The notes beneath the pieces are model-generated. The model worked only from the letters and a program-made list of their open reading frames with translations, was not told where the DNA came from and did not search any database. Source: Nemertoderma westbladi (Eukaryota > Animalia > Xenacoelomorpha). From it: 64,000 bases of DNA. Location of the stretch: contig JAUCBJ010007289.1 of the NCBI GenBank assembly GCA_032718475.1, positions 420,741-484,740 on the forward strand, in the 5' to 3' direction. The position numbers were made by a program, and so were the translations under genes. This document shows, in pieces, positions 8,991 to 46,835 of the stretch (position 1 is its first letter; every line of letters begins with the position of its first letter).

Positions 8991-9778
8991 TTTAACGGGA
9001 ATAAATTTAAATTCATATTTTAAATGAATTTCATAAATTGTCATTATGTGCAATTTATAACATTCCCAAAATTTCATTAATTAATAGATCATGGGAGCGG
9101 AGATTCATCCTATTGAGTGTATTAGAGTGCGAGAATCTCCAACATATAGTCAATAGCCGATAAAATTAATAAAATCATGCATAGAGAGGATATTGACAAT
9201 TAAAGAATTACTATTAAATAGCATTCCAGATCTGTATGCATGAGAATTACCCTAATTCTACCGCTAGCTTTCCATAATGTCACCATAGCAACACCCACGC
9301 TAGAATTAGAAGCAAGTTAAAAGAACAATAGAAAGCTTGTCCCATTGCATAGCATAGAGAATACATAGCACACTGTTAGTATCCAAGGATACACCGTAAT
9401 AACGTGACATTCTGGAAGGCACTGACTAACGGACAAATGGCCTGTATGTGTACAATTGGTGACAGTTATGTGGAATTTATGCGTTTATAGGTGAATGTTA
9501 CTGCTAAAGTATGTTTACAGTAGCTAGTCGCAATTGTGAAAGTAACCCAACTCTCCTATAGAAAGAACCTAAAGTGGATCCAAGCCTTTGGGACGGACAG
9601 TGGAGTGACTTGTGCCGGTTATCGTTGTCGTGCTGTTGCTACATGTTGGCGTAAACACCGCGACAGCGGTACATCGGCGCTGAGAATCCCACTGTCCGGG
9701 GGCAAAGAGAGGTAGGCAGCGACGCCCGCTCGCCTAAACATAAACTCATTACAATATTAATAAACTCAGATAGCAGAT

Positions 9779-14110: not shown

Positions 14111-15313
14111 TGTAAAAGCTTTTGTGGATATAATCAGTCCCCTTGCCCGCAAAGTACCGTGTGGGTATTTTAACGGACATAAAAGTTGTTTTCCTATATG
14201 TGTGCTTTGGCGGACATGGAAAGGCACAAAACCCGCAATGCGTGAAATTCTCTAGCACAGTGTAGCCTTGATGATTCAGATTACGACATCTAACAGCTGG
14301 TTGCTGGCATGGAAACGGCCGTTGGACACATGGTTCTTTGTTTCAGCTTAACAGCCAATCAGAGCGATTTTTACTGTCGATGTGGAGATATTCTACAGAT
14401 CGTGCTAGGAGTGTTCAGTCTTACTGTTTTCGTGTTACTGTTGTGTTGTTTCTATCTAGGCCAAGAACACCGGCTCTGGAGTCAATTCGTTTCAGACTTT
14501 AGAAGAAACATTAGTAGGCTTAGATTATAGAACGTATAACTGTTATCAACACAGTCGTACGGCATATCGTATCATTGATACATTATCGGTACATTGTCAT
14601 ATCATATCTTAACCTACCGTCTTAATGCTTTTTACTGTTGTTATTACATTGGTTGAATATTATTATTTGGAGAACATCTATAAAGAACCCAAATTTCCCA
14701 ATTTTCTTGATACACTACAGGTTAGAGAGACAGGTTACATATAGCGATTGCGACTTATATTCTCGTGGTTTGTAGTGAGTTTAATGCTATTTGATAGGCA
14801 CCTACATGAGTCAATTGCTGTTCTCTTTATATATGATAAAATTCATTGACGGTCGGCAGATTAGTGTGCAGTATTGTGCGTTACCGGTAGTGTGCATGAT
14901 TGTGGCTGATAACTAAGCATTTCCTAAAGAATGCGCCTCATACGTGAATCATAAGCCTTACAGTCTTACAGTTGTGTTTAGTATAAGTCATATCTCTGTT
15001 TACCTAGATAGAGCGCCATGTCCTAAAGGAACTGTTAATATTTCCCGAAAGTGAATAATACTCGTCAGAAATTATTTATTAACGATCAATCGAATAATAC
15101 AGTAAGCTTACACTGCAATAATAAAATCTAAGCCCTCCGAATCCAGTCTCCCGGGTATATCCAGCGGGTGAATGGACGCGCACTAGGCTGGCTTCGGCTA
15201 ATGTTGTGTTTATTGGTATTAAATACTTGTCATTTACTAAAGTCTATTTGTAAACCAAAAGACATATAAATTTTGGCAGGTTAAACTGCTAAAGGTCTTC
15301 AAAAGCGCGTACA
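14111..15313 (+). repeat. 3' LTR of copy 1 (type A, 1203 bp)
   Basis: TGTA...TACA termini. Closely similar to 45667-46824, and its 3' ~650 bp resembles type B LTRs. Confidence 0.95.
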
Positions 15314-22610: not shown

Positions 22611-23950
22611 TACAGTAATATAAATAAACAAGTAATGCAGTACTGGAAAGCTTGTCCTTGTACGGGTTATTGCTGCACTGTGCTACAGTACTAATGTAGC
22701 AGTAGTACCTGTGTAATGAACTGCCTAATTTGTACTGTAATTTACACAAAGATACTGTAGTATTGGGTATCTGAATGTTGATATCAATGGGATCCCGAGG
22801 CGTACAGTGACGTCACGACCAATCACAGATCGTTTTCAAATTTTGAATAATTTTTAAACTGAAAACACCAATATCTCGGCTATTTTAGCATCTTATTGAA
22901 TTCTGTAAACGCCATTGTGTTTCTGTGATATTATTGCATCTAATTAATCTGGTTTTGAATTTGAGTCGTGAACCCCATTATACTGTTACTGCATAAGGTT
23001 ACTGCATATTGTCTAATTAATGGATATACATCCGGATATACTGTAGTCAGATAGAAGAACTACTTACGAAGTTTTCAAATGATAACAACACTATACTGGT
23101 CCTACTTCTGGTAGTAAATGCTTCTGGTAGGGTTGTTCTGAATCTTCGTGATGATGGTTCAGATGACGACGCTATGGACATGTTTCAGTCAATCTCTCAG
23201 GACAGGACGTAGATCACGAAATATTTATAAAGGATAATACTGTAGAAACCTTAATGCAGTACCGTGAACCGTAGAATCTACAAACCAATCTGTCTCAGCA
23301 TTAAAGCGATATCTTTTTCGGATCAAATGTTCTAAAAATATCACTAATGTCCTATTAGAAGAACTTGCTGTATATACGAATGGGTTTTTGAAGCACTACA
23401 AGAAGGAGATTAATGGATCCGTTGCACAGCTTTGTCCGGATTGAAACGACTACGCTTAATACCTACATTTATGGAATGCTCAGATTCTTTAGAGTCTTGA
23501 CATCGTGGACATGGAAATGTCTTAGATCTACCCGAGTTCAAAAATACCAAACAAGTGTTTCTTATACGAGGATGAGGCAACTTAAAGACGGAAAGAAGGA
23601 GGTAAAAGGGAATTTCGAAAATGCTTCAGACAGTCAGACCCCGTAGATGCCTTGAATTTTAAAGTGATGCACGAAAAATATCTTCGTGGAAGTGACACAC
23701 ATACCAGCATACTAAACTCAGGGATACGTTATACATCATATTCCTAACGCATTTTGGATGTCGACCAGGAGACGAGATGAGACAAATTACCGTGGGTGTA
23801 TCTGTGAACTGTGATATCACAAAACATTTTGATTCTAAAAATGGTAAGCACTATCTATCATTGCGCTTGCGAAGCACAAAGATTAACAAGGGACAGGGGA
23901 AAATTCAATTCCGGAATATAAGTGATTACTTATCGATGCAGTAATCTCAT

Positions 23951-25133
23951 TGTAAAAGCTTTTGTGGGATAACTGATTCGTTTGCCTTGCCAACCAGTTC
24001 CCCCCCCCCCCCCCCCCCCCCGTCGCTGAATACTCTAAAAAGGGATACCTAGCTAGAATAGTGTAAGCTACCGGCTGATTGGCTAATTTGCTGTGCGAGA
24101 GGATCTGGGCTCTGCTCGATCGGCCAATAGAATTTGAGTGGGCGTTGATTTTGACCTATCCCAGAGCTACTGAACTGAAATTTTCCTATCTCACTGCTCA
24201 TCCTCTGTGTTGAACGGGAGCTTCGTGGAATAAGGGTAGTTGGTATCCTCGTATAGAGTAGTAGTCGGAGTCATATGATTCTGTTGTTGTGTTCCCATTT
24301 TTCGCCAGAACACCGGGCTTTTGGGAAGAACTTTAGTAAAACTGCTTAAATTATGGAAAGTATAAACTGTTACCTAATCTGATCAATCGACTAATCTAAT
24401 CTAATCTTGATTGGCACACGGCACGAACTTACTTATTAATTATATTGTTTGTACTGTTATTTACCGTCAGTTATTAATTGTATCGATTTGTTGATGAAAT
24501 ATTGTCATCTGGAGAATATTGATAAATCACCCGAATTACCCAATTTTCTTGATACACTACAGGTTAGAGAGACAGGCTATGTATAACAATTGCGATTTAT
24601 ATCAATGTGGTGTGTATTGAATCTAATGTTATTTAGTAGACACTACCTGAGTCAATTGCTGTTCTTTTTATGTGTGATCAAATTTACTGACGGTCGGCAG
24701 AATAGTGTGCATGATTGTGATTGGTAACAAAGCATTTCCTAAAGAATGCGCTTTATACTTTAATTATAAGCATTATCGTTGCGTTTGGTATAAGTCCTAA
24801 CTCTGTTTAAATAGATAGAGCGCCACGTCCTAAAGGAACTGTTAATATTTCCCGAAAGTGAATAATATCTGTCAGAAATTATATATTAGTGATCAATCGA
24901 ATAATACAGTAGGTTTACACTGCAACCTTACGCTGCAATAATAAAATTTAAGCATCCGAATTCAGCCTCCCGGGTGTAGATCCATCGGGTGAATGATCGC
25001 GCATGGGCTGGCTTCGGCTAATGTTTTGTTTATCAGCATAAAATATTGTCGTATGCTAAAGGTTTGTTAATTAACTAAAAGACATACAAATTTTGGCAGG
25101 TTAAACTGCTAAAGGTCTTCAAAAGCGCGAACA
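23951..25133 (+). repeat. 5' LTR of copy 2 (type B, 1183 bp)
   Basis: TGTAAAAG...GCGAACA. Differs from the 3' LTR by a C22 run and at least one substitution. CCAAT motifs at ~24078 (reverse) and ~24124; AATAAA at ~24940. Confidence 0.97.
24361..24373 (+). promoter_or_regulatory. Putative self-primer in type B LTR (TATAAACTGTTAC; also 42605-42617)
   Basis: Exact reverse complement of the 13 nt immediately 3' of the 5' LTR (25134-25146). Confidence 0.7.
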
Positions 25134-25146
25134 GTAACAGTTTATA
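25134..25146 (+). promoter_or_regulatory. Non-tRNA primer-binding site of copy 2 (GTAACAGTTTATA)
   Basis: Abuts the LTR CA end, lacks the TGG of a tRNA PBS, and is complementary to 24361-24373. Confidence 0.7.
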
Positions 25147-26093
25147 ATCTTATTGCAGTAAGCAATAAGGTTGCAAAATACCGTAGTAACCGGTAAACCT
25201 GAACCGGTACTTCTGTAGGTCAGTAGGCCCAGCTGTCAGAACCGGTACTTCTGTAGGCCTGTAGGCCCAACTGTCCTAACCGGTACTTCCAGTATAAGTA
25301 CATTAGTATTATTCGATTTTGATTATTGTATACCGGTAGGTCTTAGTATTTAATCAGGGACTGCAGCCCTGGTTTTTTATTGAGATTTTACTCATTCCTG
25401 TCGGTTTTATTTCCTAGTAAGTTAATATTGAGCTGAAGACGTGTAAGTCTGCTCAGATTGTTCAGATAATTGTAGGCTGAGCTGCTGTCTGACTGTTGTT
25501 GGGTTTGGAGAGATTACGGCGTGTGTAGAGTTTGTCTGATAAAGTGCCGTTAGTAAGTTGGGGCAGCCATATGCTGTAAGGTCAATCCCCTCTTAAAGAA
25601 TAAGTCGTACTACCGTGTTAGAACGCATACTAACTAACTATTTCAGAATCTGCATATACTGTAGTTTATTTAGGCTTGATCGTGGTCTGCCAGCATTTTA
25701 GCCTGTGTTTGTTTGTGTGGTCTGTTCAGGTACCGTAATAGTTATTACTCAGATATTTGTAGGCTGGATTGTTGTCTAGCTATTATTAGGTCTGAAGAGA
25801 TTGCTGCGTGTGTGGAGTTTGTCTGATAAAGTGCGGTTAGTAAGTTGGGGCAGCCATATGCTGTAAGGTCAATCCCCTCTTAAAGAATAAGTCGTACTAC
25901 CGTGTTAGAACGCATACTAACTAACCATTTCAGAATCTACACGTACGGTAGTTTATTTAGGCTTGGTGGTAGTTTGCCAGCGTTTGGTTTGTATTTGTTT
26001 GAGTATTCTGTACGGGTAGCGTAATATTTATTATTCAGAGTTTATGCGATTATTCGCAACATTCATGTCCCCAAGTTTATTCCTACAGTAATT

Positions 26094-26929
26094 GTGGCTG
26101 GCCACGAGAAAAGGGACCTTATGTCACCGGAGGTCGATTTTGAGTTATTAGGCCTATGAGATGCAGAATTTTCCAGAGATTTTAACAAAAAAAACGGTGT
26201 CTCAATATCTATTTCCAAAAAAAAGTTATAGCGATTTATGTCAAGGTGAATCGGGTAGCAAAAAATTTTTTATTAATAGCGGTTATAATAAGCGATTATT
26301 AAAAAAAATGGAAAATATTAATAATATCATAGCAATTCTTACTATATAGTTAGGCAGCTCAATGTTATTCGGCTTTTTATACAACTTTTAACAATTTGAA
26401 ACTAATATTGTTCATGAACTATTTTAACAAAAATTTTGCAAAATTTTCAAAAAAACATGAAACCAAAAATTTTTTTTTTTAATTTAAAATTTTTTCAAAA
26501 AGATAAATTTTTTTAACAAAATTTAAAATTATTTGTATTTTGAATTCTTTATTAGGATTACAAAATTTAAGAACTAACGAAGATTAATTAAGAAAATGAC
26601 AGCCATATTGCATTTAAAAAATAACTGTAGGCCTACAGTACCTACATAATACAGTAGTACAATTACAATTTATTACAGTCCTAAATTAAGACATGAAAAC
26701 CCTAAGACAGTGTTATATACAACACTGCAACATCTTATATTGCTTCCTGTAATTAGTTATTTCCTAGGTATATTGAATATCAGAACCAATTTGAATTTCC
26801 CTCATTGTTTTATACATTTCTAAATTGATAATCCAATTAAATTTGTTCAAAAATAGAGGGAAACTTTAAACGCGATTATCTCAGAATCAGGTTTTGCGAC
26901 ATAAGGTCCCTTTTCTCGTGGCCAGCCAC
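26094..26929. mobile_element. Non-autonomous TIR DNA transposon (MITE, ~836 bp) nested in the copy 2 leader
   Basis: 32-bp perfect TIRs GTGGCTGGCCACGAGAAAAGGGACCTTATGTC / GACATAAGGTCCCTTTTCTCGTGGCCAGCCAC. Absent from copy 3 (empty site TACAGTAATTGTG at ~47851). TSD is AATT, or AT if the termini are TG..CA. Confidence 0.92.
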
Positions 26930-28165
26930 AATTGTGTTTGTTATACATACCGTTATAGTTAAATTATCCCCGGTACTACACGGGTTGCTTGGGGTAGGAC
27001 AAGACTGGTGACTTTGTGCTCTGGTCACTCCAGCAGATGCCGTGGTTCTTTTAACTGTTCAAGTATATTTAACTACTGATTATTTGTTGTACAAGTACTT
27101 GTACCTAATTTAGGGTTTAGTGTACAGTGCTTTCCGAAGTAATTAGTGCGTAGGCAGTATATTTGTGTTGTAAAGTGGTTAATAGGCACGCTGGATCTGG
27201 TAGTCCGCGGTAATTAACTTCTAGGTAGGAACACTCCGTGATACATAACGTAGTACCTATAGCGATACGGCTATAGGTCGTCAGGCGGTGGTATTTTCCT
27301 ATCTGGACAGCGCAGTGTATTTACTACTACTTATTATTTTAAATACCGTAGTACCCTGTCCGTTGTAATAACCAGAATTCTAACCCTTTGTTAGACGGGT
27401 TTGTAGTTTTTCCTGTAAAATTACCCTAAAAATTTCGTACGTAATATTTTGTTGTGTTTAATTGGAGAATTAATCTCACCCATATCGTAAGTAATTTGTA
27501 GTATTAAGTAACTTAAGTAAATTAGAATTATCAGTTTTAGTGTCAAATAAATAGCACTTCACTGAGAGCGCACAGCTTTTGTGTAGTGAACCCCAGAAAT
27601 AATAACATTTATTTCAAATATTGACAAAACCCTTTTAAACGGGTACATAAATATTATAAATCAACTCAAACGATTTATAAATAGTAGGCTTGCCATACAA
27701 CAACTAGGTCTCAATATCAGTTGGACTACTGCTTAAATAACGGTAACAAAGTAAGTTAAAGTAACCAAGTAACCCTAAAATATTCAGAAATTCAATTATT
27801 CTAAAATAATTGACATACCGGTATTTACCATAGGCTTATTATATTTATTTCTATAAATTTGAGCTGAAATCATACCGGTACTCTGTAATTAATTCTAGTT
27901 CATAATTATACTTATATATACTATAAGTGTAAGCTGTATACCGGTATTCACGATAGGCCTATTATATATTTATATATTTGTGCTAAATTTATATACCGGT
28001 ACTCTGTGACAAACCTAGTTTACAATACTTATATATACTATAAGTGTATACCGGTATTCTAATATACTGCAATAAATTACCGGTACTAGGCCAACGGTCA
28101 TACTGAATTACTAGACTTGCTTTAACTGTAACTATAGCAGTAGGCATTCAACTGTATAGCTAAAC

Positions 28166-31100
28166 ATGTCTGACACTCAGAAAAACCTGTCAGACAGTCT
28201 AATTGATACAACCATCTGTGACACAGATAGGAGTGTGGAGCGATTAAGAAAAGAGTTCAGTTCACCTCCTACTGTAAGAAAAGTCATCCGTCCAGTAGTA
28301 TCAGACCCTAGGCTAATCCACCATAGGTCCATCATAGGCACTCGGGCCCAGGTCAAACGGAACCAAGAGGCGGCTGTCCTATCGCAGCAACATCTTGGTC
28401 ACGAACCTAGTTCCCAACGAACCGATAGCTCCAGTAGTTCAGATACTGTAGAGCTCACCCCCGAACGTTGAGTGCAGATGACTACTACAGTCTACTCGGA
28501 CCCCCTTCTCACCCTTCCTGCTGCAGTGCTAACTACCATATTCATTGCGGTGGAGGAACATCAAGCCGACTGGGCGAGAAATAAGCGAGCAACCCAAGAT
28601 AATTATGCGGGATACGCCAGGGAAGAATTGATGTCTATTGTCGAGTCACAATGGAACTTTCCCGGACTCGGACTTCCGTTGGATCTGTCCGAGGCTACTT
28701 GGGAAGATATACACAGGATGGGAGTGGCGAAAGATACAATGGATCCAGCTGTCTGGAAGAGGTCGGCAGCAGGATATGTGCAGGGATTCTTCGGCTCCTT
28801 GGAGCGATTGGAAGAACAACTGTTTCGACAACCCCAAGGACCTCAAGAGCAGGAAGAGCTGCTATACCAAGTACGCGAAAGAACCCTACGCATTCGACTA
28901 ATCCTATCAGCCTTTGAGGAAACTTCCAAAAGAAGACAGGACACGTCGCTGCAGGTTGCTGTCAAAACTTGGTTCCATCGGGTAGGTCTCAAAGTACAGG
29001 AAACGGCCCAGTGGAAATCCCAGCTAGCTGAGAGATCAACCTATGAAGAACCAACTGATGCCACCCTTTCTCAAGCGGAAAGCGAAGAGACCGCAGAGAA
29101 ACCGCGAACTAGAGACGCTATAGACATTTATCTGTCCGACTATCAGCGATTTCTAGGAGACGAAGAGTTGAGGAGACGGCTGTCTGGACTTTCCCCTAAT
29201 AGTGAAGGAACCAAGCTTGTGTTGGACTCAATCGATGCGGAAATGTTAGCTGCCAACCAAGCTGAATTTGATGAAAAACTCCGCCTCGCTAGAGTCCAAG
29301 AAGAACAAGTAAAGAAAAAACGGATAGAGGAAAGAAAGGCAGCAGCAGTAACGGCGGCAGAAGCAGAAGCAGAAAGAAAAGCAGCGGCGGCAGAAGCAGA
29401 ATCAGAAAGAAAAGCAGCGGCGGCAAAAGCAGAATCAGAAAGAAAAGCAGCTGCGGCAGAAGCAGAAGCAGAGAGAAAGGCAGCAGTGGCAGAAGCAGAA
29501 CAGAGAGCTTCTGAGGAGACTATCCAACTGGAGTTGGAAAATCTGCAAGAGACGCAAGACAGCATAAATAAACAGTTTACTGCTAATCAAATGCAGATGA
29601 TGAGAAAATCTACTCCCAAGCGCCAGGGATACACATCCTCGGAGGAAGGCGAGACCACCGATCCTGAAGGCGGAGGAAATAGATCTCATCTAAGCAGGCG
29701 TAGAAAAACATCTTACCGTCGCAAATTGCCTGATTTGCCCCCAGCTGTTAGAAGACAGCTAGCTAGCACAGACTTGAGTAGTATAGAACCTACAGACCAA
29801 ATTATTAAGGTCAAAAGACTCCCTACTATAGTTGATGAGCCTGAAATAATTAGGCCTGTCGTTCCCAAAGTCACCCCTGTATTAGAGACCCCTGTACTTC
29901 CAGAGCTTAACTCTAAATTCCCTTTACATAGTACGACACTCCCTGTACCCGGTAGAACAGTCCAAGAGAATATCCCTGTCCGGATAGCAGAGGGAGAAAT
30001 CAAAGATTTGTCTCCCGTCGTCCCGCGTCAGCCCGCTACTATGTTGGCGACTCCCGCTTCGGCGGTTGAGTGGGTAGAGGAGGGACGGTGGGGGATGAAT
30101 CTCCTGCTCGGACAAATGCAGGAGACTGTCCACCAGCTTAAGGGAACAGTAAGGGAAAGTAGAGCAGAGTTGCAAGAAGTGCAGCAAAGTATCGCACTGG
30201 AACGCGACAAATTAGTCAATATACAAAAGGGCATACCAATACCCCCTGTAACCTTGTGTCAACCTGTTAGGTCTGAAGTATTACATGCGCAAGGTGTGGA
30301 GCCTACACGCATCTATACTGCTAGTGAAGTAGAAACTCCTATAGCAAACCCTATTAAGGGTGATTATAAACCTATCGTTAATGATATTCCCTATAGACCT
30401 GATAATAATCCAGGAAATTTATATACCGATAATTCGATATTAAATAACACGATGGCCCAAGAAAGCTTTACACGTCAAATGGCTAGAACAGAAGCCCGCC
30501 AAGCGGTCAAAGTGGGAGAGATCGTCAAATTCAATGGAGATGAGATGAAATGGTTACCTTTCAACGAATATTACAAAGATAGCATACAGAACTCTGTACT
30601 ATCTAACGGAGAGAAACTTAGATTCCTCATCAAGTGCTTGGAAGGACCTCCCAAGTTAATGGCGTTAAAGTTTATTGGACATCCAGATGGATTAAGACAA
30701 GTTTGGGATACATTAAATATCAGGTATGGTAACAAGGATAACATAGCTAAGTATTTGTATGCAAAATTAGTAGCCCCCCGACACTTCCTTAGTAACGGGA
30801 TTATAGAGTTTTCCGATGAAATTCAAGAGATCTGTAGACAACTAGACTGGTTAGGTAAGTCTCATGAATATCAGAGTTCCATGGTTATTGGAGCCGTAGT
30901 CTCTACTTTACCAAAGGGTGGAGTATGTACACGCTGGGACAAGAAGGTGTTGTACATGAATGAACAACAACGACGAAGTCCTACTATGACGGATCTCATG
31001 TCCTTCTTAGATGGTGAAGTAAAACTACAACTCATCAAGCAGTCCAGAGAGAAAACATCGGAAAATAAGGTAAGTGAGAAACCCGCTTCTAGGAGAAGAG

Positions 31101-34100
31101 TAACACCGGTGTGTTACACTGACGACGGCGAAAGCCAAGCTTCTCAAGAAGAGGACAGCGGAAAGGATACAGAAAGATCTTACTACATTGACAAAACCTC
31201 AAAGGACGTAAGTAAATACAAGGCTCGAAACAACGATAGGAGAGAACAGGTTGCCAAGACCCCCCCTCAGTCTCCTAAGAGAATGCACCGAAGAAAACCC
31301 GAAGAAAAAACGAGAGTGCATCAAGCTACCCAAGGTAAAGTGAGTAACATAAAACCTAACTGTGCGCTGTGCGACGGGACCCACCGTTTGAGTGCGTGTG
31401 CTGAATTTCTAAAGAAATCCCTTGTGGACAGACGTACAGTCGTGTGGGACAAGCGGTTATGCTATAATTGCCTCAGACCAGGACACCAACGGCGAACCTG
31501 TTACTCCGACATAAAGTGTGCAAAGTGTGGCGCGCAACATCACATCTTGTTACACAGTGAGTTCGAACGAGACAAACAGAGTCAGGTAAGTGAGCCTGAA
31601 CTACATGTCCAATTCAGTGATGTAAATGACACTGATCAGGAGTCTGAGATGGAAGGATTCTATACTGACGAATTCTCTGACGCCAATGAATCCTGTTATC
31701 TAATAAATACCGCAGTGTATCGAGCACTTACTTACGAAAAGGACATCAACGAGGAGTTTCCCCCTACTACTTTTAACAAACAACCATCTTGGAAAGCTCC
31801 AACTTCCAACGTAGGAAAAGAGAATTTCCTGTAGTGCAGGTAAGAGTTCACGGTCTTAACAAAAGTTACATAGTGAACGCCCTCCTGGACTCCGGCAGCA
31901 CAGGAACATTCATCGATCAAGAACTAGCCGAAGATATCTTTGCTGGACAACCCAAGTTCCGGACTAAATTGAATATGTCAGGAATTATGCAGGTTTGGAA
32001 ATCTACCCTGACGGCAGATTACTATGTAGGTGTGTTGTCCACCCCCCAGGATAAGTTAGGAACACAAGGTGTAAGGTCAGTAAAAATGGTGGCTATAAAG
32101 AACTTCGCTACTACCCAAGCAGACCTTTATAATTGGGACGAGGATGAGAGCATCCAACATCTTAAGATACCTCGATTCCAGACAGATTATCCTGGAGTGC
32201 AAATACTCATCGGCCAAAACGCGCACGAAGCGCTTGAGACATTGGAGAAACGGCCTGCTCAACCACAGCCACTGCAAACCTATGCGGTAAGAACTAGAGT
32301 AGGTTGGTACTTTACTGGCCCTTCCCGTAGAACTCTAGAAGAGAGAATGCCCCACGAACAAATATATCAGGTAAGTGATTGGGAAGAGGAAAGCAGTGAG
32401 GTGGACGAACTAACTGAGGGAACACCATACTCCTCAGATAATGACGACATCTACCAACTCTTCGATGAAGAGAACACAATGGACCTACTTACCGAAAACC
32501 AAACTTGGAAAAATCAGGTGAATCTATGTCAACTGATTCGCCCATCGGAACCCATTGCTTACAATGACGAACTAAACGATGAGATAGAGCGTTACAACGC
32601 TAGAACTCGGGACGAACTAGCCGTAAGATTCTTTACTCAAGAACTGATCGAGCCCAATTCATACGATAAGGCTCTATCGATAGAAGAAGAAAGAGCCAAG
32701 CAAATCCAGGAAACAACTACACGTTTTTTAAAGGACCAAGGTAGGTATGAAATCGGCCTACCATTCCGAAAACGAGAACCTAGATTTATAAATAACAGAC
32801 CCTTGGCAGAGAAAAGAATCGCTCAATTACATCGACGCCTTACAGCTAATAATTCAGCGAAAGAAATGTACCAAACTCAGCTGAGGAAATTTATAACAAA
32901 GGGATACGCGGAGCGAGTACCGGAAGGAACACCAGTGACTGAGAGAACGTATTACTTGACACATCATTACGTTCCCAAACCCGGCAAACCCAACGAAGTA
33001 CGAGTCGTATTCGATGGCTCCGCCCTATATATGGGCCAATCCCTTAATTCCGAGTTGTTACCAGGACCCAACTTACTCCAATCTTTGTTGGGAATACTTT
33101 TAAGATTAAGACAATATTCCATCGCGTTCGCCTCCGATATAGAAGGAATGTTCTTACAAGTCAAGGCGCTGGATAGAGATAGAGACAGCCTGAGATTTCT
33201 GTGGTGGCCTGAAGGAGACCTCAACCAGAAACCGGTGGAGTACTGGATGACCATCCAGGCTTTTGGGATCATATCTAGCCCTTCCAACGCCTGCTCCGTG
33301 GTGCGAACCACTGCGAATGACAATCGAGACTCCTTCTCAAAGGAAGTGATAGACAACATAAAACGCAATATATATATGGACGACAATTTAAGGTCCCTTC
33401 CATCAGTAGAAGAAGCCATAGCTGTCGCGAAAGGAACAGTAGAATGTTTGAAAAGAGGTGGATTTCGACTGACGAAATTCACTAGCAACTCCCGTGAGTT
33501 TCTGGAAGCCATACCGGTAGAAGACCGAGGAACGAAAGACCTAGACTTAATAAAGGACGATCTTCCGGAAACCAAGACGCTAGGCTTGAAGTGGGACACT
33601 GAAAGAGACATCCTGTTTTTTCAGTTAAAACAGCGAGATAATCCAGTTCGAACCAAACGGATTTGTTTAAGTATCCTGAGCACTTATTTCGACCCATTGG
33701 GATTTATTAGCCCAGTTATCTTGATTGCTCGGAGTTTAGTACAACAGATGTGGCTTGAAAACCACTCATGGGACGATCCGCTTAAGGGAGAACTGTTGAA
33801 GAAATGGATGAAATGGGAAGATTCTCTACCTGCCATCGAGAACTTTATAATTTCCCGTGCATATTTTGGCCATGTTCTCCCTACGTATTCCTATCAACTC
33901 CATGTATTTGGAGATGCCAGCGATATGGGAATCGGTATAGTGGCATACCTGCGAGTCGAAACTCCGGATGGAATCAAAGTTGCCTTGGTTACATCTAAAG
34001 CATTGATTAACAACAAGCTTAAGGTTCCTCGGGCGGAGTTAAAAGCAGCTTTATACGCTACAGCTATCGGCCGGAATGTAACAGAACAGATCGATTATAC

Positions 34101-36249
34101 ACTGGAGAAAACGGTTTATTGGACCGACGCTTTACTTGTGTTGGAATATATAACGAATGAAGCCTGTCAGTTCAGCGTCTTTGTTACTAACAGAGAGGCC
34201 ATTATTCTTAGTCGCACAACGATAGATCAATGGAGACATTGCCCTGGTACGATTAACCCAGCTGACATCGCCTCCAGGGGAGCAACTCCACAGGAACTGA
34301 TAGATACTCCTGACTGGTTGGGTGGACCCGACTTCCTGAGCAAGGAAGAGGATGAATGGCCTCCTCACCTTACTACGGCTGAGATTAGACAAGCCAAGGG
34401 AGCGGAGAAAGTCAAACCCAAAACTCGGACAAGTAAATCGAAGTTATTTAAACCGACAATCGATCTATCTGTATTACATATTGCCGAAAACGATACTTCG
34501 GATCCACAATCTCCCACCGCAAACAAGTCTGTTGTGGAAATTAGAGACAGAGATTGGAAATCTGGAATACCAGACGTCTCGCAAGGAATCTCACCCCTGC
34601 TGCAGAGAGCACTGCATCATTATAGTTCCTGGAATCGTCTCTGTAAAGCTGTCACCTACTTAAAGAGATGTTTTCACCATCACTACTCCAGGACGCAAGC
34701 GCCTGCTCCAGTGACATCTGCGCAAGTTCATGTTATTAAAGATCTACCTAAGTACAAGATATCAGACCGGTTTCTACAGGAGAAGATCAGCTACCAGGAG
34801 CATGAAGAAACTAATAAGCAGCTACTGAGACTCCTACAATGCTATGAGGATTCCGATAGGTATTTTCTGTTGTTGAGAAATCCGCAGATGCGCTTAAGGG
34901 ATCGCTTCTCTAGCACAATGATAGATGGGTTAATACGTGTTGGAGGAAGGCTTACAAACGCCCCATTATCCTTTGATACTAAATTCCCTATACTCATTAG
35001 TAATCTTGAAGTACAAATCAAGATGATTGTAGATGTTCACAGCAAACTGTATCTTGCTGGTAGAGAACGAGTTCTTAGCGAAATTCGAACTCGCTATTAT
35101 TTTCATAAACCACATAGAGCTCTGAATCAAGTTCTTAGGAACTGCATACCTTGTAGGAAAGCATTCAGTAGGCCTTTAACACAGCGAGAGGCAGAATTAC
35201 CTAGGGAACGAGTAAGCTTTTATGAACCACCCTTTACTAATACTGGTGTGGATTTATTTGGCCCTATTGAAGTGTATCGTGCTAGGACTATAGTCAAGAG
35301 ATGGCGTGTAATCTTTGTCTGCATGACTTGTAGAGCTATACATCTCGATATGGTGAACGATCTATCTACTAACAGCTTCGTCTTATGTTTACGACGACAG
35401 ATCGCTCGTTTCGGAACTAGCAACACGATGAGATCCGATAAGGGAACGAACTTCATTGGTGCCAACAACGAAATTCAGGCTTACGTAAAGGACTGGAATC
35501 AAAGACAGGTGGACGACCAGCTGCGGATAACGGTGTCTAGCTGGACCTTTAACGCCGCCGACGCCCCTTGGTGGGGAGGAAGTTGGGAAAGATTAATTCG
35601 AAGTGTCAAGACCGCATTTCACTTTATAGTGCCGTGCCGCGCATATCTCACCGACGAACTTCTGCGGACGTTAATGGAAGAAATCGCCGCCTATCTTAAC
35701 GAGAGACCGCTTATGCCAGTCTCGTCGAGTATAGACTCCCTGGAAGCGCTAACACCCGCGCACTTCCTACTTAAGAAACCTGTAGCCATGCTCCCACAAT
35801 CCGAGATTGCCGATGGGGATGAATACTGTCGTCGAACTTGGCAGCTTATGCAGTTGCTATCCCGTCGTTTCGCTGACCATTTTGAGAAACATTATCTGCC
35901 CACGCTACAACTTCGAACTAAGTGGTTTGCACAGCAGGAAAATGTCAGCGCCGGAGACATGGTGCTTATTGTAGATCCGGACCTTCCACGTAGACGGTGG
36001 CAGATAGGTCGTATCATCGAGACGCACATCTCGGAGGATGGTCTAGTGCGCTCAGTAGAACTCGTTGTCATGAGGCGTAACTTCAAAAAACCCGGTATAA
36101 TCTTTGAGATGCAACAACTCAATCGCCCGGTTGGTCGTTTATGTTTGCTGGAAAGAGACCGGGAACTCTCCGGAAACTATGGAAGGCAAGAAACTCTTCC
36201 CACGACCACCTCCCTAATACCTCAAACATCTAGGGGCTCCTCAACGTAG
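28166..36249 (+). pseudogene. gag-pol: gag-pol polyprotein of copy 2 (~2,690 aa when repaired); Pol portion 31789-36249 is open
   Basis: Gag core and three knuckles, protease ALLDSGS, RT YMDD, RNase H FGDAS, integrase D,D,E and a BEL C-terminal domain (WQ..F..HYLPTLQLRTKW). Lesions: TGA at 28469-28471 (GGA in other copies) and a 1-nt deletion at ~31818 (GGAAAAGAG vs GGAATCAGAG). Confidence 0.95.
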
Positions 36250-37870
36250 TACGTCTGGAGTGGGTGTATGTCTATATTATTTTATCTATTTTTATTACAT
36301 TTTATATGTAAATGTTATTATGTACGTTATTATAATCGTTTTTATTTAATTTTATTTAGTAAAATGTTATTTTAGAATATTTAGTAAATTAGTGCAATAT
36401 ATTAGTGTTTATTACGTACTTAATTACTTATAATATATTTAGTGCGACGGCAAGAAATAATTATTTTCTCTTTCCTTACTGTCCGTATTATATTATAAAT
36501 GCGAGACTATAGTAAGATGACATGTCAGTACTTATTAAAGTACAATAAAGCCACTACTATATTTAAGTATTATTGGTAGGCAGAGTATTAGGAATGCAAA
36601 GTTCAGATCCTCGTGTCTCGGCTAAACCAAGCTCTGGGTAGACCTTGGAAACGACTTGCCTCTTCACACTGACATTGCTTCGTGCGATATTGCTCTTCTA
36701 CCTTATCTCAAATAATACATATAGTAGCGTGATGTCCCTATAACAGTAGCGTAAAACGCAAATAAATCTGTTAAACCTTTTGACCATCTGTAATTCTAGT
36801 CGATTAAGATATCGTGGCACCCACCGATATACTTGAAAGACAAATTCTAGAATCAGTGGTTAACGTCCCCAGACAAGTTCTGGAATAAATCGGTGCCCAT
36901 CTTAAATATTAATTTAATATTTATTATAATCTGTAAAATTCAGGTCCGTTAACAATTCTAGTCGATTAAGATATCGTAGCCCTTACCGATACTCTTAAAA
37001 GACAAATTTCATAGAATTAAGGATCCGATGTCCCCAGACCTGCTCTGGAATAAAATTGTGTCAATTTTAACATCAAATAATAAAATTCACGGGAATAAAT
37101 TTAAATTCATATTTTAAATGAATTTCATAAATTGTCATTTTGTACAATTTATAACATTCCCAAAATTCCATTAATTAATAGATCATGGGAGCGGAGATTC
37201 ATCCTATTGAGTGTATTAGAGTGCGAGAATCTCCAGTATATAGTCAATAGCCGATAAAATTTATAAAATCATGCATAAAGAGGATATTGACAATTAAAGA
37301 ATTACTATTAAATAGCATCCCAGATCTGTATGCATGAGAATTACCCTAATTCTACCGCTAGTTTTCCATAATGTCACCATGGCAACACCCACGCTAGAAT
37401 TAGAAGCAAGTTAAAGGAACAAAAAGGGCTTGCCCCATTGCGTAGCATAAGAGAATACATAGCGCACTATTAGTATCCAAGGATACATAGTAATAACGTG
37501 ACATTCTGGAAGACACTGACTAACGGACAAAATGGCCTGCATGTGTGCAGTAAGTAATGATTGTATGGAATTTGTGCGTTTATAGGTGAATGATACTACT
37601 AAAGTGTGTTTACAGTAGCTAATCGCAATTGTAAAGTAGCCTAACTCTACCGAGATAACCTCAAGTGGATTCAAGCCTTTGGGACGGACAGTGGTGGGAC
37701 TTGTGTCGATTATCGTTGTCGTGCTGTTGCTACATGTTGGCGTAAACACCGCGACAACGGTGCATCGGCGCTGAGAAACCCACTGTCCGGGGGCGAAAGA
37801 ATAGTAGGCAGCGACGCCCGCTTGCCTAAATATTGACTCATACTAATATTAATAAACTCCGATAGCAGAT

Positions 37871-40800
37871 ATGACGGAATTAATAGAAGATGACCTTGGT
37901 ATTAGAGAACGATATACCCTACCTTTACAAGCGTTTGTGGATAGCTTGATACCCGGTGAAGCCGATCCGACTATTACGGAGGACGATGGTCGTTATATCG
38001 AACCGCCGATGTCCCAGGAACAACTTACGCGTGAATTGGACTATAGAAAATTCACCGCTCGCTATACGAATCGTAACGGTACGTATATGGACTTCTTGAC
38101 TACCGGCCATCCTACCGATTTACATGATACGGACGATATAGACACCGAAAGGGAAATGGTTCTCTTTAAATATCATACCCAGAGGAGTCGTAATGATAAA
38201 CCGAGAATAGAACACGAGAACTCTATTCGCAATCTACTCGACAGAGAAAGCGTGGAAGAACCCGATAAGCGCATCAACTTCAACGACTACCTGGAATTTT
38301 TGAGAGAAACCTATCTCAATATTGCCAGTCAACAGAACCTAGAGACTCGATATCCCCAAGGTATACATCATGATCCCATGGTAGAACTCAAACGACTCTA
38401 TTTCACCATGATGTATCTTACCGCAGATCGTCCACTGCCTGTTGTCCCAGACAGCTTTGAACAAATGGAAGAGTATTGCAAAACTGGAGAACGATCACCC
38501 GCGTTTCCTCTGCAGGACGTACGTCTTTGGTATTATTGTGACACATGCCCTAGACCTAACCAGCAAACGGAAAGACATAAACATCCGCGGAGACGTTGTG
38601 CTAAACACAGTTTTACGCGTTATACTTACGGGAGTTTCGAGCGAAACCTGTTCGACGTATCGCCTACGATCGCCCGTCTCAAACGATCGTTAAATAAACC
38701 CATGATCCGAGTTCCGGAATACTCGATCAGGCCTCCTCATTACCCAGTGAGACCTCAAACTCTTGATCCTAACAGCATCACTGATCCTCCCGAGTTATAT
38801 TCACTGTTCAAAGATTTGGTGTTACCCGAGCAGTTAATCGGTGGTGTTCCGACAGTAGGTTCGTTAGATATTCGACCATCCTATTTAACCGGATTGGGAC
38901 GCGGGCATCTAACATTGCCATTTAATCCTTACAATCGGCCAGGATTAACCCCGATACAACCTGCCACGGAAGTCGAGGAGAGCGTTATAAGAAAAGCTTT
39001 AGACGCCATCCGACAGAAAATCGGAAAGGGAACACAGGATTGTCTAGAGAAACGTAAACTACAGCAGCAGGTCCAATCGGTGAAAGAGTTAGCCTTGCCG
39101 CAGTTTGATAGAGAAATCCAAAACCTCGAAGAGGACATCGAGCTTGGACGTACGTATTCTCTACAGGAGTTTCTAGAAGAACGTTTACAGAAGCAAGCGG
39201 AGGAAAATCAACTCGAGGAGAAACATACGGAAATGGATGAGAGAGAAGAAGCTGCTTTAGCCCAACCCGAAGCTCAGATACTCATAACCGATCTCTACTC
39301 TAAAACCGTCCGTCACCCCTCGATGGTTCCGCATTTTGGAGACAAACTCTTCGCAAAGATACAACCCCAACCGGTTGATATCAGCATAAGATCGCAAAAT
39401 CTTATCGCTGACGCTCCTATGTTACAGCGTCCGCCAATCGAAGCTGCTCGCGTTGACGGTATACTCGTTGAACCTCCGGACAATCGAGCGGATCTTGTCC
39501 GTCGTATGGTACACGATGTCAACATACGCGCTAGACCTTTACAGAACTCTTTCTATGGAATTAAAGACCACCCTTATTACGTTAATTTGACTCAATATTA
39601 TATGGTAAAACCAGAAGACCCGACGCATAATTTAAAGTTTCTACCACTAATAAATCCTCTAGACATTGTCGAACTCGAACAATTGCAAAAGCATCTGGAT
39701 CAGTTAGTAAAATTAAACTCATTCCGAAAACCATATAACGTTTCTCGAACAGAGAAGGATACCGAACCTCCTTATAATCTCGATGGATTTATTAAAACTC
39801 GATTAGTCCATTGGAATCTAGACGTATTATTCGAGGAGGAGAAAATACAGAGATATGGAAATGTGGAGACGTATACCACTCGATATATGAAGTATAGTGA
39901 TCTCCCTGACGCTAATCAATGCGCCACCTTGTGGCATCCGGTAGGGATGACCCTCGAGAACGCCACCAAAGAGTGGAATGAAACTCTTAATGTCATCGAG
40001 ATGTATGGCGTTGTTACTTACGATAACGAAGGTAGCGTTCCGATCGGAGAATTAGGAACTATGCGCATGATACACATACGCGGATTAGCTGGTTCCACTC
40101 ACGTGTTTACGCGAGCGTGTTCCGACGTGAGCGATTATTCCTTTGAAACTCTCACCGAAACGCAAAAGAATCTCCGACATGGACAATTCGAACTCGCGCA
40201 GCGTTACGTCATTGACACCGAACGCAAACCGGCCATGGGTATCGATGGATCGATGCTACCCCAGCCCGTTCTAGAGATGTTGTTCAACGAAAGAATCATT
40301 AAAATCGGCTCAGCTGTTTATGGAGATCTCCAAAACGACTTTCGGAATATGGAAAATATCCCCTATCCTATCGTGGATACTCAGCTGATTGCTCCCTGGA
40401 CCGAAGGCCGAGGTTTCTTTCGCACCATGTATGCCAATACGTCTAGCAACATTACAAAGGTGCAACGAACTTCCATCGGACATCTTGCTTTTCAAGAATA
40501 CGGATGGAATTTCAAGGTCGGAAATCCCATCAACTATCAACAAGTATACGGAGACCATTATTCTCGATTATACTTTGACGGACCGTTGACCGCACCTGGC
40601 GCCGTGTATAGCTTCATGAGTGTTCCACTCCGCCCCTCCTTAGCTATCTACACGATTTTTGAAAACACCGCACTTTCCGGTTGGCTAGCCGATGTGTGCA
40701 GTCGTACTATACGCGCCCATCCATTAATCCTTGGGACCAAACTCGCTAAGCTAGATGAACATAATAAATTCATCCGCTTTGAATGTTTCCGGCGATTCTT

Positions 40801-42178
40801 AACCCCGTTTCGCAACATGGATAGCCAATTCAAAGACCGCGCTTTGACCAAGCTCAGCTTAAGAGACTCAGCTGCGGAGAAGTTAGATAGCGCTGGATTT
40901 GCTATTTTCAAAGACATTTGTATAACAAACCTGCACTCCTCTGTTATCCAAAGACCTCGAATCCCCACAGGTTATTCTGTCGTGGAAATTCAGACGGTAG
41001 GTCCACTTGAAGAGACAGCCATGCCTACCTCAACTATACAAGGAGAAGACGAACCCATATGCTTAGAATCCGAAGAGATTCAGCCTCCCACACCTCGGAG
41101 TAGCGACAGCGATTACATTTTGGAATGGTATCAAGGTCCACAGTGTCTCACTGCGTATGATTATCGCCATGCCAATTATGTTTCTCGACAACGTTGTCGG
41201 CTGTGCGCGTCGAGAGACCATATTACGTCTATGGACACAAACGATCTCTGTTCCTATTTCCACGAGCAACCGCCGATGGAAATCTATTGTGCATATTGCC
41301 GGCTTAACAATTTGCACATTTTTGCTGTCTGCCCCCAATTTATGACTCAATGCCATCATTGTCAATTAAAAGGACACGCCAGCTTTGATTGTCCCTTTAA
41401 TCATGATTTAGAGAGCGCAGATGAAATGATTGTACTACGTTATATCAGAGCTTGGGAAGCGAACGCTGATTTGCACTGTGATTCACGCCATCGCTATTAC
41501 CCTGGACGCGCTTACGAAGGAGTTTATGCGTTCCATCCTTATTTATTTGCCTCCGTCGAGCAGAAATCACGTATATCAAGTTACGAACTACTGAAGCGCG
41601 TCGGAGAATGTATTTCAACCAAATATGTGCGCAAATTTCTCAGGAGCATTAACCCTAGTGACATCCATTCTTACAACTTAATAAACTTTATCCGTCAAGA
41701 CCCTGATTATGGAGACTTATTTGTCAACTCGCACCCCGAGTTACAGGAAGTATATCGACGGCCTTACGAGTACCAAGCCCGCGAACGCGAGTTGGAAAGA
41801 ACCATTAAACCAAGGAAGTTTCTGACTGCCTATGGTCCACCTACGGCTCTCGTTCAGACCACTCTTAAAGGACCCGTAAGAGCGGCCGTCTTAAAACGTG
41901 CTCTAAAGGACGTTAGACCCCTCTCCACCGAAGTTGAAGTCAACCAACCCGGCACTTCGACCGGCGGATATACCGATCGTAATCCCATACCTTCTGATGC
42001 AATCATATTGCATATATATCATATTGCATCATATTGCCTCCTTGTAAAGTGGCTCGCCCCAAAGAGAGAAAGACTCTTGCTAGCTTTAAAAAACTGCGTA
42101 AATGCCGTCCGCGCAAGAAAGACTAACTGTTTAGAGTATTTTTATATTTTAGAAACTGTGATTTTGTATATTTTATAG
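37871..42178 (+). CDS. ORF3 of copy 2: accessory protein with coiled coil, DEDDy (WRN/RNase D/EXD-like) exonuclease fold and CCHC knuckles; last ~55 codons frameshifted relative to copy 1
   Basis: Open 1,435-aa frame. ExoI VVTYDNEG (~40010-40033), ExoII KIGSAVYGD (~40301-40327), ExoIII-like GPLTAPGAVYSFMS (~40580-40621). Knuckles CRLCASRDH, CAYCRLNNLHIFAVC and CHHCQLKGHASFDC. A local rearrangement at ~42010 changes the C-terminus. Confidence 0.85.
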   Translation: MTELIEDDLGIRERYTLPLQAFVDSLIPGEADPTITEDDGRYIEPPMSQEQLTRELDYRKFTARYTNRNGTYMDFLTTGHPTDLHDTDDIDTEREMVLFKYHTQRSRNDKPRIEHENSIRNLLDRESVEEPDKRINFNDYLEFLRETYLNIASQQNLETRYPQGIHHDPMVELKRLYFTMMYLTADRPLPVVPDSFEQMEEYCKTGERSPAFPLQDVRLWYYCDTCPRPNQQTERHKHPRRRCAKHSFTRYTYGSFERNLFDVSPTIARLKRSLNKPMIRVPEYSIRPPHYPVRPQTLDPNSITDPPELYSLFKDLVLPEQLIGGVPTVGSLDIRPSYLTGLGRGHLTLPFNPYNRPGLTPIQPATEVEESVIRKALDAIRQKIGKGTQDCLEKRKLQQQVQSVKELALPQFDREIQNLEEDIELGRTYSLQEFLEERLQKQAEENQLEEKHTEMDEREEAALAQPEAQILITDLYSKTVRHPSMVPHFGDKLFAKIQPQPVDISIRSQNLIADAPMLQRPPIEAARVDGILVEPPDNRADLVRRMVHDVNIRARPLQNSFYGIKDHPYYVNLTQYYMVKPEDPTHNLKFLPLINPLDIVELEQLQKHLDQLVKLNSFRKPYNVSRTEKDTEPPYNLDGFIKTRLVHWNLDVLFEEEKIQRYGNVETYTTRYMKYSDLPDANQCATLWHPVGMTLENATKEWNETLNVIEMYGVVTYDNEGSVPIGELGTMRMIHIRGLAGSTHVFTRACSDVSDYSFETLTETQKNLRHGQFELAQRYVIDTERKPAMGIDGSMLPQPVLEMLFNERIIKIGSAVYGDLQNDFRNMENIPYPIVDTQLIAPWTEGRGFFRTMYANTSSNITKVQRTSIGHLAFQEYGWNFKVGNPINYQQVYGDHYSRLYFDGPLTAPGAVYSFMSVPLRPSLAIYTIFENTALSGWLADVCSRTIRAHPLILGTKLAKLDEHNKFIRFECFRRFLTPFRNMDSQFKDRALTKLSLRDSAAEKLDSAGFAIFKDICITNLHSSVIQRPRIPTGYSVVEIQTVGPLEETAMPTSTIQGEDEPICLESEEIQPPTPRSSDSDYILEWYQGPQCLTAYDYRHANYVSRQRCRLCASRDHITSMDTNDLCSYFHEQPPMEIYCAYCRLNNLHIFAVCPQFMTQCHHCQLKGHASFDCPFNHDLESADEMIVLRYIRAWEANADLHCDSRHRYYPGRAYEGVYAFHPYLFASVEQKSRISSYELLKRVGECISTKYVRKFLRSINPSDIHSYNLINFIRQDPDYGDLFVNSHPELQEVYRRPYEYQARERELERTIKPRKFLTAYGPPTALVQTTLKGPVRAAVLKRALKDVRPLSTEVEVNQPGTSTGGYTDRNPIPSDAIILHIYHIASYCLLVKWLAPKRERLLLALKNCVNAVRARKTNCLEYFYILETVILYIL

Positions 42179-42204
42179 ACTTAAATCCGATTTTCTGGGA
42201 GCGG

Positions 42205-43377
42205 TGTAAAAGCTTTTGTGGGATAACTGATTCGTTTGCCTTGCCAACCAGTTACTGAATACTCCGTCGCTGAATACTCTAAAAAGGGATACCTAGCTAG
42301 AATAGTGTAAGCTACCGGCTGATTGGCTAATTTGCTGTGCGAGAGGATCTGGGCTCTGCTCGATCGGCCAATAGAATTTGAGTGGGCGTTGATTTTGACC
42401 TATCCCAGAGCTACTGAACTGAAATTTTCCTATCTCACTGCTCATCCTCTGTGTTGAACGGGAGCTTCGTGGAATAAGGGTAGTTGGTATCCTCGTATAG
42501 AGTAGTAGTCGGAGTCATATGATTCTGTTGTTGTGTTCCCATTTTTCGCCAGAACACCGGGCTTTTGGGAAGAACTTTAGTAAAACTGCTTAAATTATCG
42601 AAAGTATAAACTGTTACCTAATCTGATCAATCGACTAATCTAATCTAATCTTGATTGGCACACGGCACGAACTTACTTATTAATTATATTGTTTGTACTG
42701 TTATTTACCGTCAGTTATTAATTGTATCGATTTGTTGATGAAATATTGTCATCTGGAGAATATTGATAAATCACCCGAATTACCCAATTTTCTTGATACA
42801 CTACAGGTTAGAGAGACAGGCTATGTATAACAATTGCGATTTATATCAATGTGGTGTGTATTGAATCTAATGTTATTTAGTAGACACTACCTGAGTCAAT
42901 TGCTGTTCTTTTTATGTGTGATCAAATTTACTGACGGTCGGCAGAATAGTGTGCATGATTGTGATTGGTAACAAAGCATTTCCTAAAGAATGCGCTTTAT
43001 ACTTTAATTATAAGCATTATCGTTGCGTTTGGTATAAGTCCTAACTCTGTTTAAATAGATAGAGCGCCACGTCCTAAAGGAACTGTTAATATTTCCCGAA
43101 AGTGAATAATATCTGTCAGAAATTATATATTAGTGATCAATCGAATAATACAGTAGGTTTACACTGCAACCTTACGCTGCAATAATAAAATTTAAGCATC
43201 CGAATTCAGCCTCCCGGGTGTAGATCCATCGGGTGAATGATCGCGCATGGGCTGGCTTCGGCTAATGTTTTGTTTATCAGCATAAAATATTGTCGTATGC
43301 TAAAGGTTTGTTAATTAACTAAAAGACATACAAATTTTGGCAGGTTAAACTGCTAAAGGTCTTCAAAAGCGCGAACA
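42205..43377 (+). repeat. 3' LTR of copy 2 (type B, 1173 bp)
   Basis: Direct repeat of 23951-25133, preceded by the PPT and followed by TSD CTCAT. Confidence 0.97.
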
Positions 43378-45666: not shown

Positions 45667-46824
45667 TGTAAAAGCTTTTGCGGATATAATCAGTCCCCTT
45701 GCCCGCAAAGTACCGTGTGGGTGTTTTAACGGACATAAAAGTTGTTCTTCTATATGTGTGCTTTGGCGGACATGGCAAGACACAAAACCCGCAATGCGTC
45801 AAATCCTCTAGCACAGTGTAGCCTTGATGATTCAGATTACGACATCTAACAGCTGGTTGCTGGCATGGAAACGGCCGTTGGACACATGGTTCTTTGTTCA
45901 GCTTAACAGCCAATCAGAGCGATTTTTACTTTAGACGTGGAGATATTCTACAGATCGTACTAGGCGTGTTATGTCTTACAGTTTTCAGTGTTACAGTTTG
46001 TTGTTTTCTATCTAGGCCAAGAACACCGGCTCTGGAGTCAATTTGTTTCAGACTTTAGAAGAAACATTAGTAGGCTTGGATTATAGAGCGTATAACTGTT
46101 ATCAACCCAATCAGCGGTACAGTCTTACAGTGTTACATCATATCATATCTTAACCTACCGTCTTAATGCTTTTTACTGTTGTTATTATTTGTATCAGTTG
46201 GTTGAATATTATTACTTGGAGAACATCGATAAATAACCCAAATTTCCCAATTTTCTTGATACACTACAGGTTAGAGAGACAGGTTACATATAGCGATTGC
46301 GACTTATATTATCGTGGTTTGTAGTGAATTTAATGCTATTTGATAGGCACTACATGAGTCAATTGCTGTTCTCTTTATGTATGACCAAATTCATTGACGG
46401 TCGGCAGATTAGTGTGCATGATTGTGGCTGATAACTAAGCATTTCCTAAAGAATGCGCCTTATACGTGAATCATAAGCCTTACCGTTGTGTTTAGTATAA
46501 GTCATAGTTCTGTTCACCTAGATAGAGCGCCACGTCCTAAAGGAACTGTTAATATTTCCCGAAAGTGAATAATATTGGTCAGAAATTATTTATTAACGAT
46601 CAATCGAATAATACAGTAAGCTTACACTGCAATAAAATCTAAGCCATCCGAATCCAGTCTCCCGGGTATATCCAGCGGGTGAATGGATGCGCACTAGGCT
46701 GGCTTCGGCTAATGTTGTGTTTATTGGTATTAAATACTTGTCATATGCTAAAGTCTATTTATAAACCAAAAGACATATAAATTTTGGCAGGTTAAACTGC
46801 TAAAGGTCTTCAAAAGCGCGTACA
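45667..46824 (+). repeat. 5' LTR of copy 3 (type A, 1158 bp)
   Basis: TGTA...TACA termini; homologous to 14111-15313. Confidence 0.95.
46092..46102 (+). promoter_or_regulatory. Putative self-primer in type A LTR (ATAACTGTTAT; also 14536-14546)
   Basis: Exact reverse complement of the 11 nt immediately after the LTR (46825-46835). Confidence 0.7.
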
Positions 46825-46835
46825 ATAACAGTTAT
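46825..46835 (+). promoter_or_regulatory. Non-tRNA primer-binding site of copy 3 (ATAACAGTTAT)
   Basis: Abuts the LTR end, has no TGG, and is complementary to 46092-46102. Confidence 0.7.

Follow-up and report, generated by a model that had tools for sequence, protein, structure and literature searches.

Candidate Tf1-like self-priming in a BEL/Pao retrotransposon family of Nemertoderma westbladi

Introduction

How does a BEL/Pao retrotransposon begin reverse transcription if no tRNA site follows its 5' LTR? The question is posed by a family with three copies in a 64,000-nt stretch of Nemertoderma westbladi DNA (contig JAUCBJ010007289.1, 420,741 to 484,740, forward strand). We call this stretch the window, and all coordinates below are counted from its first letter.

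For Belpaoviridae, ICTV lists a PBS of 18 nt that fits tRNA-Arg or tRNA-Gly, and an element length of 4.2-10 kb (PMC8742986). Self-priming, as the available portions of the sources describe it, has been reported for Tf1/sushi elements and predicted for Tcn1 and for the copia TAR lineage (PMC6317226, PMC4600332, PMC2864245, PMC5443660). In Tf1, the RNA's initial 11 bases anneal to the PBS, and cleavage by RNase H falls between bases 11 and 12 (PMC7175516, available part). According to the accessible part of a preprint, Tf1 needs three duplexes, namely that between primer and PBS and two PBS-adjacent ones with the LTR downstream of the primer (10.1101/2022.12.06.519325).

A sequence-only reading of the window had proposed that this family primes with its own RNA, and knew of no such case described for BEL/Pao. 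Our literature search likewise found none; it scarcely covered subscription journals, Repbase reports and supplements. A term search of two main texts, those of the largest BEL/Pao survey and the Sinbad paper, found neither 'PBS' nor 'tRNA' (PMC3118150, PMC554778).

Results

A complete BEL/Pao element with sister copies

Copy 2 (23951-43377) is a complete, young BEL/Pao element. Its total length of 19,427 bp lies above the ICTV range, at about twice its size. The main features of the three copies are as follows.

14111..15313, + strand: 3' LTR of copy 1, with a copy-3 type motif at 14536-14546 and a perfect D2 arm (see below)
23951..25133, + strand: 5' LTR of copy 2, 1183 bp, TG..CA, with the TSD CTCAT at 23946-23950
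28168..31834, + strand: gag region of copy 2, with DUF1759 and zinc knuckles
31777..36249, + strand: pol of copy 2, overlapping the end of gag in another frame, with protease, RT (YMDD), RNase H and integrase
37856..42178, + strand: extra ORF of 1440 aa between pol and the 3' LTR, with a copy 1 counterpart at 9764-14032
42197..42204, + strand: PPT of copy 2, GGGAGCGG, adjoining the 3' LTR with zero spacer
42205..43377, + strand: 3' LTR of copy 2, 98.4% identical to the 5' LTR, with the TSD CTCAT directly after it
45667..46824, + strand: 5' LTR of copy 3, sister subfamily

The two LTRs of copy 2 differ in a poly-C tract and one substitution. TG..CA LTRs, TSD and PPT, the structural marks of BEL/Pao, are all present. 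The copy 2 ORFs match DUF1759, Peptidase_A17, DUF5641 and an integrase zinc finger, the pol matches being PF05380, PF18701 and PF17921. With PF03564, these make up the BEL/Pao family domains that were found (PF05380 at E=4e-36), in the order PR-RT-RH-IN. YMDD and the RNase H acidic motifs are retained in pol (by eye). The gag of copy 2 has an in-frame stop near its 5' end, at a place that is open in copy 3. PF05380 is present in all 120 homologs listed; the closest homologs show 39-45% identity, and those with names belong to echinoderms, molluscs, cnidarians and a nemertean. Judged by its proteins only, the element is a member of BEL/Pao, and it is not a typical semotivirus. Overlapping gag/pol frames, PR-RT-RH-IN order, an LTR of up to 1.2 kb and the PPT are shared with Belpaoviridae (Semotivirus; PMC8742986). 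Unlike the ICTV Semotivirus, the window copy has no tRNA site, is 19.4 kb long and carries the additional 1440-aa ORF.

Copies 1 and 3 form a sister subfamily with ~91% internal identity to copy 2, and the first ~340 nt of the LTR are unalignable between the two subfamilies. The leader (25134-28167), ~2.2 kb without its insertion, carries 38-nt and 287-nt tandem repeats. The insertion itself (26097-26929) is MITE-like, ~830 bp long with TIRs of at least 30 bp, and is absent from copy 3. The pol of copy 3 is interrupted by a LINE-like element (53840-58562) with an apparent 14-bp target duplication, an ORF at 54074-58330 (RVT_1, E 3e-4) and a 24-nt tandem coding repeat. Between copies 2 and 3 lie three 677-bp tandem units, 98-99% identical (43548-45667).

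The extra ORF has a possible 3'-5' exonuclease domain and zinc knuckle. Its residues 640-1050 reach a feature score of 0.93 to 3'-5' exonuclease clusters, and in its sole sequence homolog (E 1e-6) the matches to exonuclease and zinc knuckle are faint; a single-sequence structure model of the domain has a pLDDT of 28.6. Pfam gave no env-likeness for this ORF. The protein could trim RNA ends. Since compact relatives of the element have no room for such an ORF, it is likely unnecessary for self-priming.

The PBS is complementary to the element's own LTR

The segments that bear on priming in the two 5' LTRs are the following.

24361..24373, + strand: putative self-primer segment of copy 2, 13 nt, LTR position 411
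25134..25146, + strand: PBS of copy 2, GTAACAGTTTATA, no spacer, no TGG
46092..46102, + strand: putative self-primer segment of copy 3, 11 nt, LTR position 426
46825..46835, + strand: PBS of copy 3, ATAACAGTTAT

The sequence-only reading had described each PBS as the exact reverse complement of the corresponding LTR segment, over 13 nt in copy 2 and 11 nt in copy 3, and both matches were reproduced. Its further observations also hold: the first 8 nt past either 5' LTR contain no TGG, and the duplex ends at the terminal CA of the LTR (25133 in copy 2, 46824 in copy 3), so that no spacer remains. Both window copies thus have an own-LTR complement of at least 10 nt within 0-5 nt of the LTR, and neither has an 18-nt PBS for tRNA-Arg or tRNA-Gly of the ICTV type, TGG being absent. 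No tRNA genes were found within the window (ARAGORN), and an Rfam search of 23900-28200 gave nothing near threshold.

Aligned LTRs place the two motifs at homologous sites. When the LTRs were dinucleotide-shuffled, a match of the same length at zero spacer arose in 0 of 300 and 1 of 300 shuffles, and in 1 of 200 for each copy with spacers of 0-4 permitted. The two compensatory changes that had been claimed between the subfamilies are real, namely a terminal C-G versus T-A pair and one additional A-T pair; pair 13 of the copy 2 duplex is absent in copy 3. Cognate duplexes have energies of -13.9 and -10.6 kcal/mol, against -8.2 and -8.5 kcal/mol for cross-subfamily pairings. In LTR reverse transcription generally, the primer is copied into the new PBS when the plus strand is made. 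A change in the primer would therefore be handed on to the PBS, so that the covariation speaks for use as a primer and not only for selection on a folded structure.

Independent subfamilies number only two within the window. Family contigs from three DNA runs of one organism match copy 2 up to ~24374 and diverge just past the last base of the motif. Loose contig ends suggest that the motif has a third variant, shorter by one A. A splice-junction primer was also considered for the window copies and rejected; the best candidates, of 12 and 10 nt, have a poor donor, reuse the motif and are shorter than the contiguous match.

Potential helices flank the PBS

Flanking helices were sought only after the three-duplex preprint on Tf1 was known. 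On both sides, the PBS is flanked by sequence that can pair with parts of the LTR lying downstream of the putative primer, and the order is that of the Tf1 'pretzel'. The pairing search gave the following segments.

24895..24907, + strand: D4 LTR arm of copy 2, perfect 13 bp with 25306-25318, unchanged between subfamilies
24921..24941, + strand: D3 LTR arm of copy 2, pairing with leader 25150-25175 and overlapping the start of AATAAA
24994..25002, + strand: D2 LTR arm of copy 2, pairing with the U5 end 25125-25133, up to the terminal CA
25091..25114, + strand: predicted U5 hairpin, the same in each of the four LTRs
25147..25175, + strand: leader segment 3' of the PBS of copy 2, D3 arm or alternative local 10-bp hairpin
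25306..25318, + strand: D4 leader arm of copy 2, outer helix
46684-46692:46816-46824, + strand: D2 of copy 3
46620-46636:46840-46854, + strand: D3 of copy 3
46602-46614:47071-47083, + strand: D4 of copy 3

D2, D3 and D4 are nested, and the PBS is looped out between D2 and D3. D2 contains a compensation, with U-A in copy 2 and A-U in copies 1 and 3: between the subfamilies, the final 42 nt of the LTR differ by a single substitution, and the D2 partner carries the matching change. A further change in copy 3 keeps a U-G pair. The energy of D2 is unremarkable, as 64 of 200 and 175 of 200 shuffles were as good. D3 of copy 2 reaches -24.9 kcal/mol, a value attained in 2 of 200 shuffles, and D3 of copy 3 is weak (21 of 200). 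An LTR insertion unique to copy 2 pairs in D3 with the copy-2 leader, and the energy falls to -14.6 against the copy-3 leader. The local 10-bp hairpin that competes with D3 has a C-G/U-A compensation of its own. The AATAAA that D3 overlaps (24940-24945) is the only one in the 5' LTR of copy 2. D4 shows that long LTR-leader matches occur beyond the PBS.

In the predicted fold of an RNA of ~800 nt begun at the motif, the duplex between primer and PBS is present in both the MFE and the centroid structure of both subfamilies, with mean pair probabilities of 0.94 and 0.90. Moving the RNA start farther upstream, by 4 nt in copy 2 or by 20 nt in copy 3, abolishes the predicted duplex, and the PBS could also be bound by a conserved competitor site of 8 nt at 24837-24844. 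Because ViennaRNA cannot model the pseudoknot, this loss of the duplex is weak evidence either way.

Splice-like signals are kept in R/U5 and the leader (24540-24580, 24909, 25091-25105 and 25158). They comprise an acceptor-like AG followed by GT, and donors at 24909 and 25158, and possibly have a role in subgenomic RNAs or in suppressing poly(A).

Most relatives carry the complement, chiefly across a putative intron

Pol was aligned with 39 homologs, and 96 loci were obtained from metagenome and MAG contigs, which we infer to be animal host DNA. A flanking repeat was present at 41 loci, 14 of which had a definable LTR end; with L005 dropped as a duplicate of L006, 13 were used. From the remainder, 9 were scanned blind, two had unclear ends (L024, L040), and 16 contig-end overlaps or other repeats were left out. 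Some of this material may stem from collapsed assembly, and not every element counts as independent. An LTR-end pattern search of metagenome contigs gave no match, and neither the viral contigs nor a second scan of genome contigs yielded a relative. Seventeen BEL/Pao pieces (L080-L096) lie in bacterial or archaeal MAGs, most likely as host contamination. One LTR pair (L017:7561-8101) ends in TA, not CA, with a clear 5-bp TSD.

At zero spacer, none of the 13 relatives gave a match, the best being 8 nt. Spacers of 0-4 nt and GT-AG junctions were allowed only after this failure. Under these rules, a perfect own-LTR complement of 10-15 nt was found in 11 of the 13, nine of them only across GTRAG..YAG introns of 72-451 nt and two contiguously, with short LTRs. 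The matched lengths cluster at 10-15 nt and are most often 11. L073 and L085 reach 11 nt only with one wobble or mismatch (by eye). TGG after the 5' LTR is absent from all 13 relatives, and from 15 of 15 elements if the window copies are included. PBS and PPT spacer lengths disagree element by element.

Across the relatives and the two window copies, own pairs of at least 10 nt occur in 13 of 15 elements, versus 3 of 210 cross-element pairs under the same rules; two of these three come from the related pair L003/L008. None of 100000 permutations equalled the own-pair total. In the sister pairs L083/L086 and L058/L077, both partners are altered together. The blind scan of nine loci with truncated 3' LTRs gave six junction matches of 11-15 nt, each equalled in 0-4 of 40 shuffles, one being of the same family as L003; L016, L028 and L091 were blank. 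Flanking helices were found on the 3' side in one of the 11 matched relatives (L058, 5/200 shuffles) and on the 5' side in none of the 11.

Relatives with the signature are spread across the RT tree, at 37-44% identity. This tree, rooted at its midpoint, places the window copy on a long branch in a supported set with the spliced L058 and L077, and the contiguous L031 is sister to the spliced L020. The topology fits repeated loss of the intron.

Discussion

We propose that these BEL/Pao elements use Tf1-like self-priming, in which the PBS pairs with the element's own LTR and 11-13 nt of its own RNA serve as the primer. We give this reading a probability of about 0.78. The original proposal gains support from candidate flanking helices in Tf1 order and from the match in 11 of 13 relatives, and it is still an inference from DNA.

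Transcription would start at or just before the motif. The nested D2, D3 and D4 would loop out the PBS, and the 5' end of the RNA would pair with it as a pseudoknot. The RNase H of the element would then cut past the last paired base, which would leave a 3'-OH opposite the base adjoining the LTR. RT would copy U5 and R, with the 3' LTR as the source from which the missing 5' bases are regained. Plus-strand synthesis would copy the primer back into the PBS and keep both in step, and D3 may mask the poly(A) signal of the 5' LTR. In most relatives, the primer would be complete only once an intron inside the LTR is spliced, the window family being an intronless form.

An unlikely alternative, equally independent of tRNA, places the motif in U3 or in a longer leader. 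Here, the primer would not be the cap end of the RNA and would come instead from the 3' LTR copy in the RNA, from a second RNA or from a short LTR transcript acting in trans. The copy 2 motif itself begins with TATAAA, and TATAWA is absent 25-35 nt upstream of both motifs; words resembling Inr and CCAAT occur 100-240 nt upstream (by eye). With a capped-5'-end primer, moreover, the first exon of the spliced relatives would measure 3-10 nt, a difficult size for splicing, which makes a cap-end primer awkward. The idea of a TATA-like element in U3, raised by the sequence-only reading, is nevertheless weakened by copy 3, in which TATAAC does not fit TATAWA, and by the relatives, whose segments are not TATA-like. 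The predicted pairing also requires a start near the motif, and the matched length is mostly that of the Tf1 primer (PMC7175516, available part).

The pairing could also be a structural switch, for packaging, dimerisation, poly(A) or splice control, while a host small RNA or tRNA fragment primes elsewhere. The further conserved LTR-leader helices D3 and D4 would suit such a role. We consider it improbable in the face of a match whose end coincides exactly, in each copy, with the LTR boundary, of the missing TGG in every element, and of a PBS that varies across the subfamilies and 13 relatives and tracks its own LTR, which would not be expected of the complement of a conserved host RNA. Barely credible as explanations are chance and a single inverted duplication within a near-palindromic word rich in A+T. 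The 11-mer of copy 3 is indeed near-palindromic and so doubles as a direct repeat with a single mismatch, the window offers two subfamilies only, and a few other matches of at least 10 nt occur in the first 2 kb of leader. Against this stand the shuffles, the three compensated changes and the cross-element control, the last of which largely refutes it.

Self-priming as proposed here has its closest counterpart in Tf1 and Tf2 of S. pombe, Tj1 and Tosmo, and the Tf1/sushi group of the Ty3/gypsy chromoviruses, which share with the window element an LTR-complementary PBS of ~11 nt and the lack of a tRNA site (PMC7175516, PMC4600332, available parts). For the PBS-adjacent duplexes with the LTR downstream of the primer in Tf1 (10.1101/2022.12.06.519325), the window copies have candidate counterparts, which show compensation, are weak by energy and were not found in most relatives. 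Unlike Tf1, the window element has BEL/Pao proteins and ~760 nt between primer and PBS, and most of its relatives would need splicing to build the primer. The start site and the RNase H cut have been demonstrated for Tf1 and are predicted for the window element. With BEL/Pao domains and no chromodomain match, it falls outside the Tf1/sushi group. The rule by which self-priming was predicted for the TAR lineage (Houba, Osr-1; Ty1/copia) and the Tcn1 chromoviruses, at least 10 nt at 0-5 nt from the LTR, also describes the window copies (PMC6317226, available part). In the same portion of that source, these are "plant elements" of other superfamilies, self-priming is a prediction only, and a splice-junction form is not mentioned (PMC6317226).

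The window adds an intronless, zero-spacer candidate with potential Tf1-type flanking helices and a third compensation, together with a controlled test in relatives. Within BEL/Pao, Cer7 of C. elegans has reportedly been proposed to encode its own primer RNA. Its source is said to lie inside the element, as a distinct tRNA-like sequence rather than a piece of the LTR.

Since relatives across the RT tree show the signature, mostly with an intron that splits the primer, the trait is likely old and clade-wide in this part of BEL/Pao rather than a recent gain. Its acquisition by recombination in this family, as previously suggested, is not favoured for the same reason. Finely balanced is the wider proposition that a large clade of marine-animal BEL/Pao elements has no tRNA priming, that its ancestral primer was a two-exon LTR primer built by the spliceosome, and that intronless Tf1-like pretzel forms arose convergently, by repeated loss of the intron in that primer.

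The spliced form would link reverse transcription to host splicing, a control point of which we found no description. If self-priming is confirmed in these elements, it would reach a third LTR superfamily, and the ICTV account of priming in Belpaoviridae would change for at least part of the family. It would also explain why PBS scans based on tRNAs overlook such elements.
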